Shown here piece by piece: positions 9,084-34,019 of a DNA stretch of 40,169 nucleotides. Location of the stretch: the NCBI GenBank assembly GCA_964535275.1, contig CAZHSX010000002.1, forward strand, positions 1 to 40,169, written 5' to 3'. The notes below the pieces were generated by a model, which was not told the DNA's origin, made no database searches, and saw only the letters and a list, made by a program, of their open reading frames with translations. A program made the translations under genes and the position numbers. Within the stretch, counting starts at the first letter, position 1. Each line of letters starts with the position of its first letter. Origin of the DNA: an uncultured Candidatus Saccharimonadales bacterium (GTDB taxonomy: Bacteria; Patescibacteriota; Saccharimonadia; UBA4664; CAZHSX01).

Positions 9084-10843
9084 TATGGCGTATCGACGTG
9101 GGTAAAGTCGAGGCTGGATTTGTAGTGTGTGGTCACCGGATCACTGGCGGTAACGTTACCAGCCAAATCCAAAATGTCGCGGTAAAAAATCGTGGTGGAC
9201 GGCTTGGTAACGTCGTTACTACCGTCAATAAAGAAGGGTCCGCGGATGCGGGCGGATTTAGTTTTGGTGCCGTAAAAATCAAACTTCAGCGTCGTACCCT
9301 GAATGACAGTCTGGATCAAAATGTAGCTGCCGGTGTCATTGCGAAATTGAAAATCCACGCCGGGGTTATAAACGGTGGCATCCACACCCGGTACTCCAAA
9401 CGGCGAGGTGTAAAACCCGACGGCGTAGGCGTGGCTGGTACGCTGGACAATCGGCAAGCCGGCCAGCAGAGCCGCCCGGTAGGCGGTGGATGACACCTGG
9501 CAAATGCCGCCGCCAAAAATCGGCTCGATCTTATCCCCCACAATTGACAACCCCGGCGCCCAACCGTGTTCGGCATCGACGTTAATAAAGTACTGATTGA
9601 ACGAAAACGTTTCGCCGGGTTTGACCAGCACGCCGTTGTACAGCGCCGCCCCCAGGCGAATGTTATTAATCCGCGCCGCCGCCGAACCCGGGAAATAAGT
9701 TACGCCTTCGCCGATTAATTCCTTAATGCCGAGATTGTTTAGGCTTTCTTCGCTAACATCCGGCTTGAGCGGCTGCAAGTTAACGGCCGCCTGACGCTGA
9801 CCGAGCGGCTGGGTAAGGGCGGCGTTAATGGCTACCACGGCGCCGGCTTGATCCAGCTTGGTGCCGGTGCGGCTGGGCTTAAACACGGTGGCTTTGTCGT
9901 CTTGAATCGTCAGCTGGGCATTCTGGGCTGATTGGTCAACGGACTGGGCCAGGGCGGCCACATAAGCGGTAATTTTGGTTTGATCAAGCTCCACCGTGAC
10001 CCCGCCGGCGTCGTAGAAACGGGTTAGATCAAAGGGGTTGGCAACGGTTGAGCGCTGATGGCCGCGAACATTGAGCCAGCTAATAATGGTGCCGGGATCA
10101 ATGGTCTTTTCGAAACCCTGACCCTTAAGTGTCACCGGCCCCTGTAAGTAAGCATCGGCCTGATGCTTGGCCTGGTCCAGCCCGGCCCCGTCAACTTGCG
10201 GCGCCAAATCATAGACCGGCGCGGTGATTGGATCGTCGCTGGCTTGGCTCAAACGCTCGTTAATAAGTAATGTTAACTGGCCGATGTCCAGCCGCCGACC
10301 GGTTTGCCCGGGCACCACGTGGGCGCCGTCGTCGAGGAATTTGAGGCTGGCGTTAACTGCCGGCTGGGTAACGTCATCGGTAATTTGGGCCAGATACGGC
10401 GTTAACTTAGCATCGTCGTAGGTAAACGAAGCGAAGGTGCTGGGCCGGCCCATAACCGACCGCAGGCGCTGGAGCAATTGCGACAGCAGCGAACCGCGCC
10501 GGCCGAAAGTTAGGGCTGCATCCACTGCCCGCCCGGCGTCATATTTTAGGTTAATTTGCTCGGTGGGAATGCGCAGGGTGCTGCTGCCGTAATTGATCGT
10601 CAAGATCGCCACCCGATAATCTTTGAGCTGATCGTTGGCAGTTTGAATAGCGGCATCCCGACCCAAACCCCCCACGTAGGCACCATCAACGCTGACGCCC
10701 GGAAAGGCCTTGCCGGCGTAAACCAAGCTAAAGCCGACGGCAAACAAGCCGGTTAAGGCGGCCAGAGAAAACACGGCGATGCCAAACTTCTGACCGCGCG
10801 TGCGGCTGGGCTCCGGTTTGACTGGAATTGGAGTTTTTGCCAT
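9083..10843 (-). CDS. VanW-domain protein with an N-terminal membrane anchor
   Basis: TM at FGIAVFSLAALTGLFAVGF. C-terminal VanW-like region (KPGETFSFNQYF ... GGGICQVSSTAYRAALLAGLPIVQRTSH). 586 aa. Confidence 0.8.
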   Translation of the reverse strand: MAKTPIPVKPEPSRTRGQKFGIAVFSLAALTGLFAVGFSLVYAGKAFPGVSVDGAYVGGLGRDAAIQTANDQLKDYRVAILTINYGSSTLRIPTEQINLKYDAGRAVDAALTFGRRGSLLSQLLQRLRSVMGRPSTFASFTYDDAKLTPYLAQITDDVTQPAVNASLKFLDDGAHVVPGQTGRRLDIGQLTLLINERLSQASDDPITAPVYDLAPQVDGAGLDQAKHQADAYLQGPVTLKGQGFEKTIDPGTIISWLNVRGHQRSTVANPFDLTRFYDAGGVTVELDQTKITAYVAALAQSVDQSAQNAQLTIQDDKATVFKPSRTGTKLDQAGAVVAINAALTQPLGQRQAAVNLQPLKPDVSEESLNNLGIKELIGEGVTYFPGSAAARINNIRLGAALYNGVLVKPGETFSFNQYFINVDAEHGWAPGLSIVGDKIEPIFGGGICQVSSTAYRAALLAGLPIVQRTSHAYAVGFYTSPFGVPGVDATVYNPGVDFQFRNDTGSYILIQTVIQGTTLKFDFYGTKTKSARIRGPFFIDGSNDVTKPSTTIFYRDILDLAGNVTASDPVTTHYKSSLDFTHVDTP

Positions 10844-11698: not shown

Positions 11699-11727
11699 AT
11701 AATAACCTGGGAATTTGGGGATAACAA
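11699..11727 (-). promoter_or_regulatory. Putative promoter of the 10859-11692 methyltransferase, leaderless layout
   Basis: Minus strand reads TTGTTA (11722-11727), 17 nt, TATTAT (11699-11704), 6 nt, ATG (11692). Confidence 0.45.
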
Positions 11728-11730
11728 TAC

Positions 11731-11759
11731 AAAGAAAATGCCGGGATGTCGCTCCCGGC
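11731..11759 (-). terminator. Rho-independent terminator of the CHAP-propeller gene
   Basis: GCCGGGA (11740-11746) pairs with TCCCGGC (11753-11759). On the minus strand it is followed by ATTTTCTTT. Confidence 0.65.
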
Positions 11760-11803
11760 AGGCGCTGCTTTTGAAGTAGCAGTAACTTTCGTTCGTTTAC
11801 AGC

Positions 11804-13234
11804 TCAGCCCATTGAGGCTGCGCTGGGCGCAGATGCCAAGGTTCCGCCAAGGGATTCCCAGGCACTCCAAGCTCCCGAAGCAAACCTTCGATGAGAAAGA
11901 CCGTTGCTGACATTCTCTACGAAGATGTCCATTACTCCGGACTGCGGAGAGGTGGCGCCAGGTGCAGAGGCTAGTGATCCACCAAGTGACTCCCAAAGCC
12001 CCCAGACATTATCGTAACGGACATGTTCAAGCGAGCCGTCGGTAGCTTCAGCAAAGACATCAAGCACATTGGCTTGAATGCTAACGGCTGCCGGCGCAGA
12101 TGCTAGTGTTCCACCTAGGGATTCCCAGGCCGACCACGAGCCAGAAGCAAAACGCCGGTGCGACAGCCCATTACTACCGTTCTTGACGAAAACGTCCATG
12201 ACCCCAGCTGCCGGGGATGTGACCGAGGGCGCCGACGTCAGAGTGCCGCCCAACGACTCCCAAGAACCCCAGCCGCTATCGTACCTCACATGCTCAAGCG
12301 AACCATCACTGGCTTCGGCGAAAACATCCAATACATTTGCCTGGATGCTGATCGCGGCCGGAGCTGAGGCTAAGGTGCCACCAAGTGATTCCCACGCGGA
12401 CCAAGCCCCTGAGGCAAAGCGACGGTGGGAGAGGCCGTTGCTGGCATTTTCGACAAAAACATCGAGTACGCCGGCTGCAGGTGAAATCACTGCCGGACTA
12501 GACGCTAAGGTGCCACCCAGTGATTCCCATGATCCCCAGCCGTTGTCGTAACGAACGTGTTCGAGAGTGCTGTCGCTGGCTTCTGCAAAAACGTCGAGCG
12601 TCGTGTTGAGCGAAGAACTAGACGTCGTCGGGGTATTAGCCAGGGAATGCACCACGCCGCGTATCGGCAGAGTAACATCGGAACGTGATAGCGTAGTGCC
12701 GGACAGTGTGTACGTTGCCAGATGAGCGGTCCCACTGCCACTGACCATATAGTTCTGTTCAACTGCGTAAACCGTTGCGCCCTCGATTCTATCTACAACC
12801 GAGACGTGGCCGTCAGGAGAACCCGAGGTATGGTTATGCACAATCATGTCACCCGGCACAATTCGCAACGCCGGACTGCCGTTGGGATAAGCCACCATCC
12901 CCATGAAGGGTGCTCCGTCGTAAATCTGATAGGCAGAGGCAGCCGGTGTATTGGGGGATTGGATGAAGCGTCCGTTGTTCTGAGTATACCAACCGCGGGT
13001 GTAATACAGCCTTTGCGGCAATTCGACACACTGCCACGCCGAGCCGACTGGCGTCTGACCACCACATGAAACGGTATCCCAAGTGCCCGACATACTACAG
13101 GCGTTGACACCTTGACCACCCATCCAGTTGGATCCCCAAATTGCCGGCGTCGTATCGGCACGGGCAGATTGCACGCTCACGAGTAAGAGCGCTGACACAA
13201 CAAAAGCAAGCGACCACGGGCGTCGCTGCTGCAT
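11804..13234 (-). CDS. Secreted CHAP-domain peptidoglycan amidase/peptidase fused to a six-blade WxxWESLGG repeat (beta-propeller-like) domain
   Basis: Start moved to ATG 13234, which has a GGGAGG SD 6 nt upstream. The track start at 13279 lacks one. Signal peptide MQQRRPWSLAFVVSALLLVSVQSARA. CHAP Cys (AWQCVELPQ) and His (DGHVSVVD). Six repeats of 44-45 aa. Confidence 0.8.
   Translation of the reverse strand: MQQRRPWSLAFVVSALLLVSVQSARADTTPAIWGSNWMGGQGVNACSMSGTWDTVSCGGQTPVGSAWQCVELPQRLYYTRGWYTQNNGRFIQSPNTPAASAYQIYDGAPFMGMVAYPNGSPALRIVPGDMIVHNHTSGSPDGHVSVVDRIEGATVYAVEQNYMVSGSGTAHLATYTLSGTTLSRSDVTLPIRGVVHSLANTPTTSSSSLNTTLDVFAEASDSTLEHVRYDNGWGSWESLGGTLASSPAVISPAAGVLDVFVENASNGLSHRRFASGAWSAWESLGGTLASAPAAISIQANVLDVFAEASDGSLEHVRYDSGWGSWESLGGTLTSAPSVTSPAAGVMDVFVKNGSNGLSHRRFASGSWSAWESLGGTLASAPAAVSIQANVLDVFAEATDGSLEHVRYDNVWGLWESLGGSLASAPGATSPQSGVMDIFVENVSNGLSHRRFASGAWSAWESLGGTLASAPSAASMG
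11816..12604 (-). repeat. Intragenic tandem repeat: three copies of an 89-aa (267-nt) super-unit, each built of two blades
   Basis: Blades begin at LDVF/MDVF/MDIF with 44/45-aa spacing. Alternating A (LDVFAEASD.SLEHVRYD.GWGSWESLGG) and B (DVFVEN.SNGLSHRRFASG.WSAWESLGG) types. Confidence 0.85.
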
Positions 13235-13382
13235 ACTTACCTCCCTTGTCGAAGGGCATTCGGCGATTTGCCGAACCAACCAATATTAGCACTAAAAAAT
13301 GTACAACTGATTAAACAGGTTACGTTTGTGGTATCAGTGTTATAATATGAAGGTCTAGGGGGTCAAACAAAAGGCAAAAGTC

Positions 13383-13925
13383 ATGGTCAAAAAGTTAATT
13401 CGCAATAAGGCCGTCATAGTGGGGGTAGGGGTTTTAGCTGTTGGCTTGGCCGCCTATGCTTTTCGCGTTAAGGATAGCCAAACCCACACCTCAAACCCCA
13501 GCACTGGCTCTACCCCCAATCAATCTCAAACCACCACCAACAGCCCGGGCAATGACAGCCAACCCCGCAGTGGGACTTCTGTTTCCCCCAGTAATCAACC
13601 AACCACCCCAGCTCCGGCCGCTCCGGCAACCAAGCAAACCGTTAACCCACTGGTAACCGCCTTAAGCCAAAGCGCCACCACAGTGATGTTGAGAGCTAGG
13701 GTTAGTGCCTCGTCGGGAACCTGCACTGCCGTTTTTTCGAAGTCCGGCTACAGCAATGTCGAACGCTCGGCTGGGCTGGTGTTTGTCAGCTCTTATTACG
13801 CCTGCGACGGATTTGATATTGATAAAACTGCTTTCCCAGCAAAGGGTGACTGGACGGCCAAGGTTAAATTCAGTTCCGACACCGCTGAAGGTGAATCTGA
13901 TACCCAGACTATAACGGTGAACTAG
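13383..13925 (+). CDS. Membrane-anchored protein with a Ser/Thr/Pro/Asn-rich linker and a small C-terminal Cys-containing domain
   Basis: TM at AVIVGVGVLAVGLAAYAF. Low-complexity linker of about 70 aa. C-terminal domain of about 90 aa with 2 Cys. TGtTATAAT extended -10 at 13338-13346. Confidence 0.6.
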   Translation: MVKKLIRNKAVIVGVGVLAVGLAAYAFRVKDSQTHTSNPSTGSTPNQSQTTTNSPGNDSQPRSGTSVSPSNQPTTPAPAAPATKQTVNPLVTALSQSATTVMLRARVSASSGTCTAVFSKSGYSNVERSAGLVFVSSYYACDGFDIDKTAFPAKGDWTAKVKFSSDTAEGESDTQTITVN

Positions 13926-13926
13926 C

Positions 13927-16281
13927 ATGAATAAGACCACAAAAAAATTAATCAAAGTTTTGCTGCCGCTGCTAATTGCCGGAGCGGCTCTAACCTTGGG
14001 CCCAGGCCACGCCCGTGCTGCTTTTGATCCTGGGCGCATTATCGATGACAGTCTTTTTACCAACGGGTCTTCAATGAGTGAAGCCAATATCCAGGATTGG
14101 TTGGTTTCCAAAAATTCGACTTGTTTAAAAAACGCGACTTCAGCGGAACCGTTTTACGACACCAGCCAACCTAATAACGTAAGGTATGGCGCCGATGTAC
14201 CGGTATCGCGAGTAATTTGGAAAACCGCCCAACAATTCGGAATTAATGCTCAAGTGATTTTAGTAACTTTGCAAAAAGAACAAGGCTTAATTACCCGTAC
14301 CTCCTGCCCTGCCAGCACAACTAGCTGGGCAATGGGCATGGGTTGCCCGGATTCCAGCCCCGGTTGTGATTCTCGCTACGAAGGCTTTTCGCGTCAAGTT
14401 TGGGAAGGAACAAAGCTACTACGAAACTGTTTTTACCAAGACGTCGGCTGGTACTGCGGCTACATTCCCTTTGCTACCAACCGAGTTTACTTCAACCCCA
14501 ATGCCGGTTGCGGTTATAGCGACGTTTATATCTCCAACCGAGCAACGGCCACGTTATACAATTACACGCCCTACCAACCCAACGCTGCCGCCCTGGCAAC
14601 CAGGTATGGAACCGGCGATAGCTGCAGCGCTTATGGCAACCGAAATTTCCATAATTTCTACGAGGACTGGTTTGGTCCACCCGTCGGTGAAAACTGGACT
14701 TGGTTCGTAGACAGTCAGTCAGGCCCAAATGTCGCCGTTCGCTCAGGGCAGCGTGCTGTAGTAACTCTGCGCGCACGCAACTCCGGCACTACAACTTGGA
14801 CCAATGGTGGCGCGAACCCGGTAAAACTCGGGACTGTCGGCCCGCGTGACCGAGCCAGTCAGTTCTGGACAGACGGCTGGTCTGGAAACCCGGGCCTGCC
14901 CAACTCCCGCCCGGCCACTTTGAGGGAGGGCGCCGTTGGCCCCGGGCAGATTGGCACCTTTAGTTTTGAAATCCAAGCTCCATATGTAAGTTCACCAACT
15001 ACCTATACCGAGGCTTTTTCGCTTGTAGCGGAAAATAAAATTTGGCTGAACGATCCGGGCTTCCAACTTAGCATCACAGTCAGCCCGCCGGGCAGTAATA
15101 CCGCCAGCGTCAGCTCGATTAGTTACAATCCCAATATTGAATCTGACCAACCGGGACTAGTCACGGTTAAAATGGTCAATACCGGAGACGATGCCTGGTA
15201 CCGCGGCGGTCAATTCCCGGTTAAAATCGGCACCGCCCAACCCCATGATCACAGCGGCACTTTTTACGACGGCGGTAGCTCTTGGTTTGCCAATAATCGG
15301 GCGGCTTACATCGAGCCCAACTATGTTTTGCCCGGGCAAACTGCCACCTTTAGCTTTTACGCTAAAATGCCACACACCACCGGCCCAGTGTCAGAAACTT
15401 ATGACTTATTAGCGGAGAATTTGATTTGGTTTGGCGACGAATTTACTTTGACCTTCAACGTTCAGCCCAGCTACACGGCAACCCTGGTCAGCCCAGCCAA
15501 CATCACAATGGTGCCTGGTGAGCCAACCACCGCCAGCGTGCAACTGCAAAACACCGGCACGGCTACTTGGGTCAAAACTGGCGCCAACCCGGTTAAACTC
15601 GGCACCCGCTCGCCGTTTGATCACACCAGCCCCATGTGTTTTGCTCCGCCCTGGCCTACCGCTTGGCCTAGTTGTACACGAGCGGCGCTTTCCACCGCCG
15701 CTTCGGTGGCGCCGGGAGCAACCGGCACGTTCCAATTTGACCTTAATACCCCTTATACCGCCAGTGGCACCTACCATGAGGACTTCCAGCTGGTGGCCGA
15801 AAACTTAAAATGGTTCGGCGACATCGCCCCGCTAACGGTTAACTACACCCCTCCCAATCGCACGTGGTCCCAGACTTCGGTCGGCTCTTGGACCGACAGC
15901 TCCAAAACCACTACGGTCGACCTTACCAATCTCACTCCCGGCCAATCGGTTTACGTGGAGGTTAAGGCTACTAACTCCGGCAACGCTACCTGGTACAACA
16001 ATGGACCTTACCCGGTGCGGTTGGGCACTCAAAACCCGCAAGACCGCATTAGTCGCTATGGCAGTTCGTGGAACATTCCCAACTTGCGCGGAACTATGGG
16101 TACTCGGGCTGCCACCGTACAGGAGGCCTCGGTGGCACCCGGCGGCACGGGCACTTTCGCCTTCACTTTGACCGTTCCTGGCGGCACCGGCACCTTTGAC
16201 GAGTACTTCAACTTGGTGGCCGAGGGTCTAGCTTGGTTCGATGGCTCACCGCCGCTCATCTTCCACACCGTCGTTCACTAA
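13927..16281 (+). CDS. Secreted 784-aa protein with an N-terminal conserved domain (ILVTLQKEQGL motif) and four Ig-like modules of about 125 aa
   Basis: Signal peptide ending ARA-AF. Four modules share N(S/T)G..(T/A)W ... NPVKLGT ... PG..GTF.F ... LVAEN..WF. Confidence 0.65.
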   Translation: MNKTTKKLIKVLLPLLIAGAALTLGPGHARAAFDPGRIIDDSLFTNGSSMSEANIQDWLVSKNSTCLKNATSAEPFYDTSQPNNVRYGADVPVSRVIWKTAQQFGINAQVILVTLQKEQGLITRTSCPASTTSWAMGMGCPDSSPGCDSRYEGFSRQVWEGTKLLRNCFYQDVGWYCGYIPFATNRVYFNPNAGCGYSDVYISNRATATLYNYTPYQPNAAALATRYGTGDSCSAYGNRNFHNFYEDWFGPPVGENWTWFVDSQSGPNVAVRSGQRAVVTLRARNSGTTTWTNGGANPVKLGTVGPRDRASQFWTDGWSGNPGLPNSRPATLREGAVGPGQIGTFSFEIQAPYVSSPTTYTEAFSLVAENKIWLNDPGFQLSITVSPPGSNTASVSSISYNPNIESDQPGLVTVKMVNTGDDAWYRGGQFPVKIGTAQPHDHSGTFYDGGSSWFANNRAAYIEPNYVLPGQTATFSFYAKMPHTTGPVSETYDLLAENLIWFGDEFTLTFNVQPSYTATLVSPANITMVPGEPTTASVQLQNTGTATWVKTGANPVKLGTRSPFDHTSPMCFAPPWPTAWPSCTRAALSTAASVAPGATGTFQFDLNTPYTASGTYHEDFQLVAENLKWFGDIAPLTVNYTPPNRTWSQTSVGSWTDSSKTTTVDLTNLTPGQSVYVEVKATNSGNATWYNNGPYPVRLGTQNPQDRISRYGSSWNIPNLRGTMGTRAATVQEASVAPGGTGTFAFTLTVPGGTGTFDEYFNLVAEGLAWFDGSPPLIFHTVVH

Positions 16282-20511: not shown

Positions 20512-21500
20512 AAATTATTTTTGTTGCCCCGTCTTTTTACCCGGCCGCTGGCGGCGTGGAAACGCATTTACGGCACGTGGTAAAAATCCTGACTGGCCGC
20601 GGGCACAAACTGGTAATCCTGGTGCGCTACGCGCCGCAAATTCCCCGCCGCCAAACCGTCGACGGTGCTGTGGTGTTGCGCCTACCCCGCCGGCTTAAAA
20701 CCCTGTGGCTATGGACTCATCGCCGAGAGCTGGCCAGGCCGGATGCCATTCACTTTCACGACTTATACCTGCCGGCTTTAAAAAAGCTATACCCAACCGC
20801 CCGGCTGGTTCAAACTTTCCACGGTTATGAAGGCTTTCCGGTTCAACCCGAGGCTATCAAAGTGCGGCAATGGATTCGCAGCCAAGTGCCGTATTGCATC
20901 GCCGTGGGTGCTTTTATAGAAAAATGGTACGGCACCAAATGCGAGGCCGTAATCTACGGCGGAGTGGAAAATCCGCCCCCGGCCATCGCCAAAATCCAAC
21001 CCGCCTACGCGGCCGTGTTTGTTGGCCGGCTGGAGCCCGACACCGGTTTTAAAACTTACCTTGAAGCCTGGGAACTAATTAACAAACAAGATGCCAAAGC
21101 CAAGTTACTGGTTGTGGGCGATGGATCTTTAAACGGCTGGGCGCAGGATTTTGTGCGCCGGCACCAGTTGCAGGTCGAATTTAAAGGTCGCGTGGACTCG
21201 GTGTGGGAAAGTTTGGCGGCGGGGAAGGTGGCATTTGTTAGCGGTTACTTAGCGATTTTGGAAGCCGGAGTTTTGGGCAAGCCGATTGTGGCCTTTTACG
21301 ACACCCCCATTAAAAAAGACTACCTAGAATGTCATCCGATGGCGGCTAATTTTGCCATTGCCGATTCAGTCGCCGCGATTGCCGCTGCTTATGCCAAACC
21401 GCCAAACTCAAGCCAGCAAAAAGCCCTCCAGGCCTGGGCCAAACAGCAGACTTGGGATAAAATTGCTAATCTATACGAGCAAGCTTATGGCAAAATCTGA
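20508..21500 (+). CDS. Glycosyltransferase, GT4-like (GT-B)
   Basis: N-terminal KIIFVAPSFYPAAGGVETH. The C-terminal sugar-nucleotide domain is degenerate. GTGA overlap with the upstream gene. Confidence 0.7.
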   Translation: MKIIFVAPSFYPAAGGVETHLRHVVKILTGRGHKLVILVRYAPQIPRRQTVDGAVVLRLPRRLKTLWLWTHRRELARPDAIHFHDLYLPALKKLYPTARLVQTFHGYEGFPVQPEAIKVRQWIRSQVPYCIAVGAFIEKWYGTKCEAVIYGGVENPPPAIAKIQPAYAAVFVGRLEPDTGFKTYLEAWELINKQDAKAKLLVVGDGSLNGWAQDFVRRHQLQVEFKGRVDSVWESLAAGKVAFVSGYLAILEAGVLGKPIVAFYDTPIKKDYLECHPMAANFAIADSVAAIAAAYAKPPNSSQQKALQAWAKQQTWDKIANLYEQAYGKI

Positions 21501-22239
21501 TTGGCAAAAAATTTGGGCCGAGCAAAACATTGACGTTGCCGCTGATCAAAAGCGGTTGACCGAAGAAAAGCAAACTTTGCGCTGGCAAAAAATGGAGCGC
21601 CTGATCAAGCAGTATCTTGGTGATTTTAAGAATCTAAAAACCATCGAGGTCGGGGCTGGATTGGGAGATTTTTCGATCATTCTTAATGAACTAGGTGCCA
21701 AAACGACTTTGTCGGACTATAGCGAGGAGGCGATTGCCAAAGCCAAGCTACGCTACCAGGCTCACGGTTTGAAGGCCGACTTTGAGATGGCCGATATGTT
21801 AAACGTGCCGGATAAACTCAAAAACAAATTTGATTTAAGTATGTCTTTCGGACTTAATGAGCATTTTTCCGGTGAGGACCGCTACAAAATTACGGCCGCC
21901 CATGCCGAGGTATTGCGCCCTGGCGGTTTAACTTTTATGAGCGTGCCATACAAATATGCCCCCCACTATCAATTCTGGATGCGCCGAAGTATTAAAAAGG
22001 GCGTGTGGCTGTATGGGCTGGAAATTCCATTCTCGCGCACCGAGATCCGACAGCTGGCGGAAAAAGCCGGCTTAAACACTGTGGCCATGTTCCACAGCAG
22101 TTTTTTGGGTGACGTGGCGCGCTTTTTTCCGCTGCCGCGAGCTGTTCGCCGGTTGCTCAATAACCATTTAGAAAAAGCGAACCCGCTTAATCGCTGGGGT
22201 TACGCGTTGGTATATGTCGGACAAAAACCTAAAAGTTAG
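21487..22239 (+). CDS. Class I SAM-dependent methyltransferase
   Basis: Start moved to ATG 21487 (MAKSDWQKIW), giving a 14-nt overlap with the upstream gene. The track start at 21352 runs 149 nt into that gene. Motif I IEVGAGLGDF. Confidence 0.75.
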   Translation: MAKSDWQKIWAEQNIDVAADQKRLTEEKQTLRWQKMERLIKQYLGDFKNLKTIEVGAGLGDFSIILNELGAKTTLSDYSEEAIAKAKLRYQAHGLKADFEMADMLNVPDKLKNKFDLSMSFGLNEHFSGEDRYKITAAHAEVLRPGGLTFMSVPYKYAPHYQFWMRRSIKKGVWLYGLEIPFSRTEIRQLAEKAGLNTVAMFHSSFLGDVARFFPLPRAVRRLLNNHLEKANPLNRWGYALVYVGQKPKS

Positions 22240-32660: not shown

Positions 32661-34019
32661 TTACCGCCCCGGCCACTCCGGGTTAGCCCAGCTCCAACCA
32701 AGGTAGCTGCCGATGCCGGGCATATTCCAGTTGGTTTGGAAAATCACTAGGCCGGTGGAAATAAATTGGCCATTGCCCAGCGACAGCATCACATGCCCCA
32801 AGCCGGGCACACCGGTGAAAAACACCAATGCTCCGGGCGGCGGATTGTGATCGCCATGGATCAGGCCGCGAGCCTGCAGATTCTGGAACTGGCCAATGGC
32901 GGTGTAGTAACCACTGTTGGCCATACCATAAGCATTGGCTACAAACCGGTCGCACCAACCATTCCAGGGCTTGCCGTCGGGCTGATACTGCTGCCCGATT
33001 TGCGACTGGGCCCAGCCAATGGCTCGCTGCTCGCGCGAACCGGCCCCCACCCCTGGCAAAGTGCCGATTTGGTAGGCACCATCGGCTAAGCTCCAACCCA
33101 GACTGCCACCTGCAAAATCTTGGCGCCAGCCGCCTTGCCAAGGATATTGGTCGCTAGTCGGCACGTCCAGCAAGCCCGCTGCCCCGCCAAGGTCAATGTA
33201 CTTGTGTAACAATTCGCCGAGCACATCGTAACTTTCACTGGCTCCATCCTCGCTCAGCAAAATGTTCCAGCCGCGTTGCCCGCCGCTGAAATCTTGCGCC
33301 CAAGCCGCGCCCCAAAGATGCCGATTGTTATTGGGGTAACCCACGACCGCGGCAGCTCGGCCGCCAAAGTTACCTTCTAGGTACTGCCACTCCGGCCCAG
33401 TCACGGTGTAAATGGCCGGCCCGCAACCTGGCGACATCAGGGCTGATTTGCCGGCCAACCCGCCCTCAAAATCCTGGATGCAACCATTGCCCCAAACGTG
33501 TACGGCATCAATCGGCTTACCGAGTTGGTTCACACCGCCGGCTGCTTGGTCGGCAATTTCATAGCCGGCCTCAAAATCCGATCCCTCGCCCACCCGGTAG
33601 CTTGGCGGCGAAGCCGGTACAATCGTCTTCAAATCCGCCGGCTTACAATCCGGGATACCGGCGGTGGGCAAGTATGGCACCCCGCCGCTAACCAGGCTAG
33701 TGGAAACGTAGCCGGCTACCGGAGCTGTCAACTTGAACCACATTGGATTAAAGTCGTAGAGATGCTCACTCCAAACTTGGCACTGAATGGTAACGATCGT
33801 ACCCGGCTTCAACACAGTTAGCGATTGGCTGTTAGCTGTTATGCCGCTGTAGGCATTAGCTGATTCGTTTTGGTTGCCGAAGTCGCCGCCAATGTGGCTG
33901 ACGATTGGCTTGGCCGCCGCAGCAGCCGGCCCGCCGGTCCACAACATTTGGCCAGCCACAATCAAATTAACTAAAAAGAGCGCCTTGCGGCACCCTCCGA
34001 CTTTACGAACTCCCAGCAC
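32661..34019 (-). CDS. Secreted or anchored NlpC/P60-family cell-wall hydrolase with LGFP-like repeats
   Basis: N-terminal TM/signal. Repeated W(G/Q)..W.QDF.GG segments. C-terminal catalytic Cys (NGWCDRFVANAYG) and His (GHVMLSLGNG). GTG start preceded by GGGGGTG. Confidence 0.72.
   Translation of the reverse strand: MLGVRKVGGCRKALFLVNLIVAGQMLWTGGPAAAAAKPIVSHIGGDFGNQNESANAYSGITANSQSLTVLKPGTIVTIQCQVWSEHLYDFNPMWFKLTAPVAGYVSTSLVSGGVPYLPTAGIPDCKPADLKTIVPASPPSYRVGEGSDFEAGYEIADQAAGGVNQLGKPIDAVHVWGNGCIQDFEGGLAGKSALMSPGCGPAIYTVTGPEWQYLEGNFGGRAAAVVGYPNNNRHLWGAAWAQDFSGGQRGWNILLSEDGASESYDVLGELLHKYIDLGGAAGLLDVPTSDQYPWQGGWRQDFAGGSLGWSLADGAYQIGTLPGVGAGSREQRAIGWAQSQIGQQYQPDGKPWNGWCDRFVANAYGMANSGYYTAIGQFQNLQARGLIHGDHNPPPGALVFFTGVPGLGHVMLSLGNGQFISTGLVIFQTNWNMPGIGSYLGWSWANPEWPGR

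Follow-up and report, generated by a model that had tools for sequence, protein, structure and literature searches.

What would a member of the class Saccharimonadia do with a secreted protein that joins a CHAP domain to a repetitive beta-propeller, and how old are the repeats from which the propeller is built? The gene that raises these questions lies at 11807-13234 on the reverse strand of a 40,169-nucleotide (nt) stretch (contig CAZHSX010000002.1, positions 1 to 40,169, of assembly GCA_964535275.1), which is referred to here as the window and to which all coordinates refer unless a contig is named. The assembly comprises 557 kb in 45 contigs and is ~79% complete. Translation of the gene gives a product of 476 amino acids (aa), P0001. 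Cultivated members of the Saccharimonadia (TM7) live attached to other bacteria, and how such cells breach or read the wall of a host bears on this protein. We report its domain identities, catalytic residues, predicted six-blade fold, repeat age and gene layout, and we argue from sequence and predicted structure that P0001 is probably (roughly 65%) a secreted, glycan-targeted peptidoglycan hydrolase.

Domain architecture and proposed activity

The N-terminal domain (residues 28-200; 12635-13153, reverse strand, as for all features of this gene) is assigned to the CHAP cysteine amidase/peptidase family on the basis of Pfam, a 51-sequence alignment (A1), an AlphaFold2 model and Foldseek matches. 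When residues 28-215 were scanned alone, Pfam CHAP (PF05257) scored 31.3 bits (gathering cut-off, 26; E 2.9e-7), covering profile positions 3-81 of 81. Scans of the whole protein against Pfam (hmmscan, even at E≤1) and NCBIfam do not report CHAP; routine annotation can thus overlook a genuine N-terminal domain when the C-terminus is rich in repeats. The catalytic residues identified in the alignment are Cys69 (13028-13030), His143 (12806-12808), Glu159 (12758-12760) and Asn161 (12752-12754). Gln68, Cys69, His143 and Asn161 are each present in 51/51 sequences, and Glu159 in 48. By sequence, this Cys-His-Glu/Asn set is the centre expected of CHAP enzymes. A preliminary description of the locus had placed the cysteine in QCVELPQ and the histidine in DGHVSVVD, and had taken a lack of conservation in alignments as grounds for doubting a CHAP enzyme; both residues are where it placed them, and conservation is close to complete.

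In an exhaustive search of 1.84 billion representatives, the CHAP domain had 482 relatives at E≤0.001 and 178 at E≤1e-10, and in a second search many relatives carried the source label 'CHAP domain'. The AlphaFold2 model of the domain has a predicted local distance difference test score (pLDDT) of 89.8 and a predicted template-modelling score (pTM) of 0.87. Its top Foldseek matches are all CHAP domains: glutathionylspermidine (Gsp) amidase, Ly7917, PlyPy, PlyGRCS, CHAPK and LysGH15. TM-scores to these folds are modest (0.3-0.5) because the domain has an N-terminal extension of ~40 aa containing two cysteines (C46 and C57). Matches in PHROGs are to endolysin families.

The C-terminal domain (residues 211-476; 11807-12604) is predicted to be a six-bladed propeller of the PLL (DUF346) type with near three-fold symmetry, (A-B)x3, an assignment on which Pfam, PDB searches, AlphaFold2, Foldseek, repeat spacing and blade boundaries converge. 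It consists of three two-blade units of 267 nt starting at 12604, 12337 and 12070, with the blades in the order A-B-A-B-A-B. By a hidden Markov model (HMM) of the blade, P0001 has exactly six units, each 44-45 aa long, and most homologues checked have six blade-equivalents; a gap-free family search places the three unit copies at a spacing of exactly 267 nt. At the protein level, A blades are 68-80% identical to one another, B blades 80-89%, and A and B blades 45-56%; NGLSHRRFASG occurs three times and WESLGGTLASAPAA twice. DUF346 (PF03984) scores 68.5 bits against a cut-off of 22 in a full-length Pfam scan, in five stretches, and PF26607 (Beta-prop_PLL) is also among the precomputed Pfam matches. 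Searched against the PDB by sequence, the propeller retrieves PLL, PLL2-5 and PHL, lectins of Photorhabdus, with E-values from 6.5e-51 to 6.5e-35. The repeat number, blade size, alternation, 267-nt periodicity, verbatim segments and DUF346/PLL-type fold given in the preliminary description are all borne out.

The same description had proposed a six-blade ring, to be confirmed by Pfam and structure prediction. The AlphaFold2 model (residues 204-476, built with 34 homologues) agrees, being all-beta with 24 strands (6x4), a pLDDT of 95.2 and a pTM of 0.91. Foldseek ranks seven-bladed PLL lectins first (E 7e-21; query TM-score [TMq] 0.72-0.77; root-mean-square deviation [rmsd] 4.0-4.4 Å), followed by the six-bladed fucose lectins AAL, AFL and AofleA (TMq 0.72-0.79; best rmsd 3.7 Å, to 6GKE). 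By rmsd, the seven-bladed PLLs superpose less closely than the six-bladed AAL entries that fit best (3.7-3.9 Å). All the homologous PDB entries found for the propeller have seven blades, but sequence databases abound in PLL-type propellers with six; solving the structure of a single member of the latter group and identifying its ligand would annotate thousands of proteins.

Taken as a two-module cell-wall enzyme, P0001 would be secreted with CHAP as the catalytic module and the propeller as the binding module. The papain-like centre of Cys69, His143 and Glu159/Asn161 would most likely cleave peptidoglycan, at the amide bond between MurNAc and L-Ala or else inside the stem peptide or cross-bridge. 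The propeller would most likely be a multivalent module by which the enzyme is retained on a polymer of repeating structure at the cell surface, probably a wall glycan. In the 120 top-ranking homologues, the propeller is fused for the most part to wall enzymes (its partners include M23, amidase_2, GH25, YkuD, SpoIID, GH18, PG_binding_1, CHAP, CAP and papain-like domains), suggesting that it serves as a surface-targeting module for secreted enzymes. Propellers elsewhere in the Saccharimonadia follow a CHAP domain (L009, 45 bits), weak CHAP-like domains (L027, L029 and L030), CAP domains (L025 and L026) or a weak M23 domain (L028), which supports the same role. From these partners and the domain identities we infer a glycan-targeted peptidoglycan hydrolase; the peptidoglycan substrate, the glycan ligand and the organism whose wall is attacked all belong to that inference. 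If active on cell walls, P0001 would be a compact hydrolase targeted by a lectin propeller of the PLL type. In phage lysins and autolysins, targeting normally falls to SH3b, LysM or choline-binding repeats.

Several observations weigh against this interpretation. The nearest solved CHAP fold is that of Gsp amidase, which is not a wall enzyme, and even the best TM-scores are only ~0.5. The count of six blades depends on the number of repeats, the number of strands and the closure confidence (pTM) of the model. The ligand sites are also altered. In PHL, the fucose site comprises Thr194 and two tryptophans, Trp199 from 'LWH' and Trp214, which is the second in WxxWxSLGG; galactose stacks on Trp202 (PMC5584973). 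In the HMMER alignment of P0001 to the PDB lectins, the equivalent of Trp214 is retained in all six blades, but that of Trp199 in none, being Glu in the A blades (SLEH) and Ser in the B blades (GLSH). The position of Thr194 is occupied by Ser or by Ala/Gly/Val, and Trp202 ('IWQ') sits in an insert of 3-4 residues that the blades of P0001 lack. With the fucose Trp lost from 6/6 blades and the Trp202 insert missing, the sugar specificity of PLL and PHL is not transferable to P0001, and sugar binding by this propeller should not be assumed from homology. The blades of P0001 instead carry HVRY or HRRF, a divergent blade type that is also found in P0053 (M23 + propeller), P0021, P0030 and P0034. 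Carbohydrate targeting by the propeller is nonetheless plausible.

Gene context, distribution and the possible target wall

The gene occupies a single long open reading frame (ORF; 11804-13279, reverse strand), and translation likely begins at the ATG at 13234, which a Shine-Dalgarno sequence (GGGAGG) precedes by 6 nt. The first 26 residues (13157-13234), MQQRRPWSLAFVVSALLLVSVQSARA, are followed by D and, judged from the sequence itself, form a Sec-type signal peptide with cleavage after SARA: a charged segment, a hydrophobic core and an AxA motif form the usual n/h/c layout. A Ser/Thr-rich linker (residues 201-210; 12605-12634) joins the two domains; pLDDT is low where the CHAP model ends and where the propeller model begins. 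ORFs of 85-157 aa in other frames are shadows of this gene. The signal peptide and the numerous shadow ORFs of the preliminary description are therefore both present.

A hairpin and T-run resembling an intrinsic terminator lies ~44 nt past the stop codon (11739-11760) and is followed by a promoter-like site for the next gene, suggesting that the CHAP-propeller gene is probably monocistronic. The promoter-like site, TTGTTA-17-TATTAT (11699-11727, reverse strand), ends only ~6 nt before the ATG of a methyltransferase gene (11692), a placement consistent with a leaderless mRNA for that gene. The neighbourhood is envelope-related, with a VanW/PG_binding_4 protein, an S-adenosylmethionine (SAM) methyltransferase and a glycan operon (wecB, flippase, glycosyltransferase and methyltransferase).

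The divergently transcribed neighbour encodes 784 aa. Its secreted N-terminal ~225 aa (13927-14700, forward strand; motif LQKEQGLITRT) have no match in Pfam or the PDB. They are homologous to the N-terminal domains of P0021, P0030 and P0034 (33% identity, E 4e-32), three proteins that bear the 'HRRF'-type PLL propeller; by this homology, the two divergent genes represent two alternative partners of one propeller type.

No full-length orthologue of P0001 was found in 60 relatives. Among 301 genomes of the class, its CHAP subfamily occurs in three and DUF346 in 12. The nearest full-length homologue is the metagenomic protein P0002 (497 aa), with 43% identity over 97% of the length; its contig carries Lsr2 and a serine recombinase, which suggests an actinobacterial or mobile context. 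Horizontal acquisition of the P0001 gene from actinobacterial hosts was considered and rejected as unsupported, though P0002 adjoins Lsr2. The CHAP subfamily was found in only one of 301 genomes sampled from the class of the actinomycete Nocardioides and in none of five actinomycete genomes bearing related propellers. A scan of genome contigs for P0001 retrieved only distant actinomycete propellers (~30% identity). The GC content of the gene (57.0%; 56.2% at third codon positions) is within ~1.5 standard deviations of the ORFs of its genome. The closest relative of the CHAP domain, P0121 (L019 548-2026; 59-63% identity, varying with the search), carries Tectonin-type repeats in place of PLL blades and adjoins defence-like genes (two SMODS, S_4TM, TIR and a KAP NTPase).

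The ~0.56-Mb assembly that contains P0001 encodes three more proteins of the CHAP or NlpC-like kind (contig C1, ~20700-21900, forward strand; contig C7, ~9386-10600, reverse strand; and window 32661-34019, reverse strand). One has a coiled-coil N-terminus and a C-terminal CHAP domain, a PcsB-like layout; one combines a LysM-like region with CHAP; and one, of 452 aa, has a weak CHAP match at its C-terminus. Our literature searches found no paper pairing Saccharibacteria with 'CHAP domain' and, judging by title or abstract, no relevant work on DUF346.

If P0001 is a wall hydrolase, its target could be the wall of the producer or that of a host or neighbour, with roughly even odds. As one tentative answer, an episymbiont would direct the secreted enzyme at the wall of its bacterial host or a neighbour, nicking or lysing it, with the propeller reading a foreign wall polysaccharide. 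Membership of the genome in the Saccharimonadia favours such a role, as do the accessory distribution described above, in which the full-length protein is absent from relatives and the CHAP subfamily rare, and the presence in the genome of separate, housekeeping-looking hydrolases (coiled-coil + CHAP and LysM + CHAP). On membership, G023, a genome of the same order, has an ORF identical to P0281, a protein listed by NCBI under 'Candidatus Saccharimonadia bacterium'. Cultivated Saccharibacteria bind host wall glycans via lectin-like adhesins and remodel host walls (PMC11623550; bioRxiv 10.64898/2026.10.06.756255), which points the same way. On the other side, the gene is located among the producer's own envelope genes, and no host-derived origin is visible, the CHAP subfamily being equally rare in the 301 genomes sampled from the class of Nocardioides.

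It is just as possible that P0001 is an autolysin for remodelling or separation of the producer's own wall, where it would be retained by a secondary wall glycan, perhaps the methylated product of the adjacent glycan operon. The envelope-related neighbourhood (the VanW-like protein, the SAM methyltransferase and the operon) fits this, as does the fact that many autolysins carry wall-polymer-binding repeats. PLL-family lectins, moreover, include binders of O-methylated sugars (PMC6943638). A core autolysin would not be expected to be absent from nearly all relatives, however; the gene has its own terminator and so would not be co-transcribed with its neighbours, and the residues of the PHL ligand site are not conserved.

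A more specific version of the host-directed role is rather doubtful. P0001 would be a wall-opening enzyme of episymbiotic Saccharimonadia in which a three-fold symmetric six-blade ring of the Arg-rich 'HRRF/HVRY' type, without the fucose Trp of PLL, reads a polymer of the host wall and positions CHAP to nick host peptidoglycan where the cells attach. Selection for three equivalent binding sites would keep the units alike, and their codons (discussed below) may have been driven apart beyond chance, which would guard against recombination between repeats.

Less probable still is an enzyme that does not act on peptidoglycan at all: the CHAP domain would be an amidase or protease with some other substrate, for instance a thiol-polyamine conjugate or else a surface protein, and the propeller would be a platform for binding proteins. 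Gsp amidase is the top match of the CHAP domain both by structure and by PDB sequence, the sugar-site tryptophans have been lost from the blades, and the hydrophobic sites of PLL can take peptide ligands (PMC6943638). Against this, P0001 is predicted to be secreted whereas Gsp amidases are cytoplasmic, the PHROGs matches are endolysins, and the homologues mostly fuse the propeller to wall enzymes. A glycan-targeted peptidoglycan hydrolase remains our preferred interpretation.

Age and origin of the repeats

The repeat units look recent as protein and ancient as DNA, which calls for caution in drawing inferences from repeats. Between units, identity is 75-84% for the protein but 65.5-67.4% for the DNA and only 26-36% at third codon positions. 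The very high identity between copies noted in the preliminary description thus holds for the protein and not for the DNA. Nei-Gojobori comparisons of the units give a proportion of synonymous differences (pS) of 0.83-0.99, above saturation, and a nonsynonymous distance (dN) of 0.11-0.20. The longest exact word common to two units is 9-14 nt, which is too short for homologous recombination. Tandem Repeats Finder did not detect the 267-nt array in 11700-13400; the repeat is visible only by gap-free family search or at the protein level.

In the blade tree, the three A blades of P0001 form one clade (support 99/98) and the three B blades another (98/97). P0002 likewise has A and B clades of its own, and the tree thus rejects the A-B alternation as an ancestral pattern with positional orthology; the blades of the orthologues P0021 and P0030, by contrast, do pair by position. 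Because the blades of P0001 cluster within P0001, the triplication took place in its lineage, after the split from all sampled relatives. Saturation of synonymous sites indicates that it is old, and the low dN relative to pS indicates that all three units are under purifying selection. The sequence comparisons therefore describe a lineage-specific, old triplication of a two-blade unit whose copies have since been kept alike by strong purifying selection; the propeller originated from that triplication. Derivation of the ring from a triplicated two-blade unit, as first proposed, is upheld by the 267-nt spacing and the tree.

A recent event looks different. In P0008, a homologue from another organism (L024 1001-2485) that serves as a positive control, units are 83-96% identical as DNA, two-blade units reach 96%, and 72 of 75 codons are the same; recent events of this kind, whether amplification or gene conversion, do happen in the propeller family. 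The preliminary description had proposed recent duplication or concerted evolution in a recombination-prone gene, and a set of repeats that arose recently, or are kept alike by gene conversion with unstable copy number, would accord with the protein identity between units, the clustering of blades within P0001 and the example of P0008; the proposal is already contradicted, and very improbable, given the DNA and third-position identities, the saturated pS, shared words of at most 9-14 nt, the negative Tandem Repeats Finder result, and same-codon counts at or below chance.

Those counts are a peculiarity in themselves. Where two units share an amino acid, they use the same codon 15, 18 and 21 times, compared with 21-25 expected by chance; in all, 54 codon pairs match where 64-72 would be expected (P = 0.004-0.07, according to the null chosen). 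The deficit is a possible, unproven sign of selection against nucleotide likeness between repeats. The units of P0002 are also saturated at synonymous sites but have no shared-codon deficit. With P ranging from 0.004 to 0.07 and no parallel in P0002, selection for codon dissimilarity was not adopted as an explanation, and the deficit is left as an unexplained hint.

Comparison with known systems

Both domains of P0001 belong to known families, and the architecture is already present in databases, where it is uncharacterised. Of modest interest are the six-blade geometry, the divergent blade type and the repeats that are alike in protein but scrambled in codons. The metagenomic CHAP + Beta-prop_PLL (PF26607) proteins P0002, P0275 and P0221 have the same architecture and a CHAP domain of the same subfamily, and are likewise uncharacterised. 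P0002 has six blades with its own A/B alternation, the blades having been amplified independently in each lineage.

The CHAP domain shares the papain-like alpha+beta fold and the Cys-His + Glu-x-Asn (VEQN) motif with CHAP endolysins and autolysins (LysK CHAPK, 4CSH; LysGH15, 4OLK; Ly7917, 5D74; PlyPy, 5UDM; PlyC, 4F88) and with E. coli Gsp amidase (3A2Z). It differs from them in its low TM-scores and in the extra N-terminal loop with two cysteines. The binding module is a propeller, as opposed to the SH3b, LysM or CBD modules of endolysins and autolysins.

The W-motif blades are homologous to those of the Photorhabdus lectins PLL, PLL2-5 and PHL (PDB 5C9O, 6RFZ, 6T96, 8Q83 and 5MXE; ~35-39% identity at the E-values given above). 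Blades are four-stranded in both, and all six blades of P0001 retain the second Trp of WxxWxSLGG. The Photorhabdus lectins have seven blades of ~47-48 aa, whereas P0001 has six of 44-45 aa. None of these six has the Trp of 'LWH' that stacks on fucose, its place being taken by Glu or Ser, and all lack the 'IWQ' insert. By the strict definition of the PLL lectin family, then, P0001 has six repeats and 24 strands in place of seven blades and departs from the PHL fucose-site residues. Its propeller is also fused behind an enzyme, while the Photorhabdus lectins are stand-alone and oligomeric (PMC5584973, PMC6943638).

The six-bladed fungal fucose lectins AAL (1OFZ and 6GKE), AFL (4AGI) and AofleA (7C38) have a six-blade ring like that of P0001 (TMq 0.72-0.79; rmsd 3.7 Å to 6GKE). 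Identity in the aligned matches is only 11-18%, so that the likeness is one of fold and not of family. Parallels in overall design are also seen in the other fusions of the Saccharimonadia (L009; L027, L029 and L030, which are CHAP-like with six blades; L025 and L026; and L028). These are of similar size (459-497 aa) and likewise combine a small secreted catalytic domain with a PLL-type propeller. Their catalytic lineages have 27% identity or none to the CHAP domain of P0001, and their blades are of the canonical 'LWHKW' type, as opposed to the 'HRRF/HVRY' blades of P0001.

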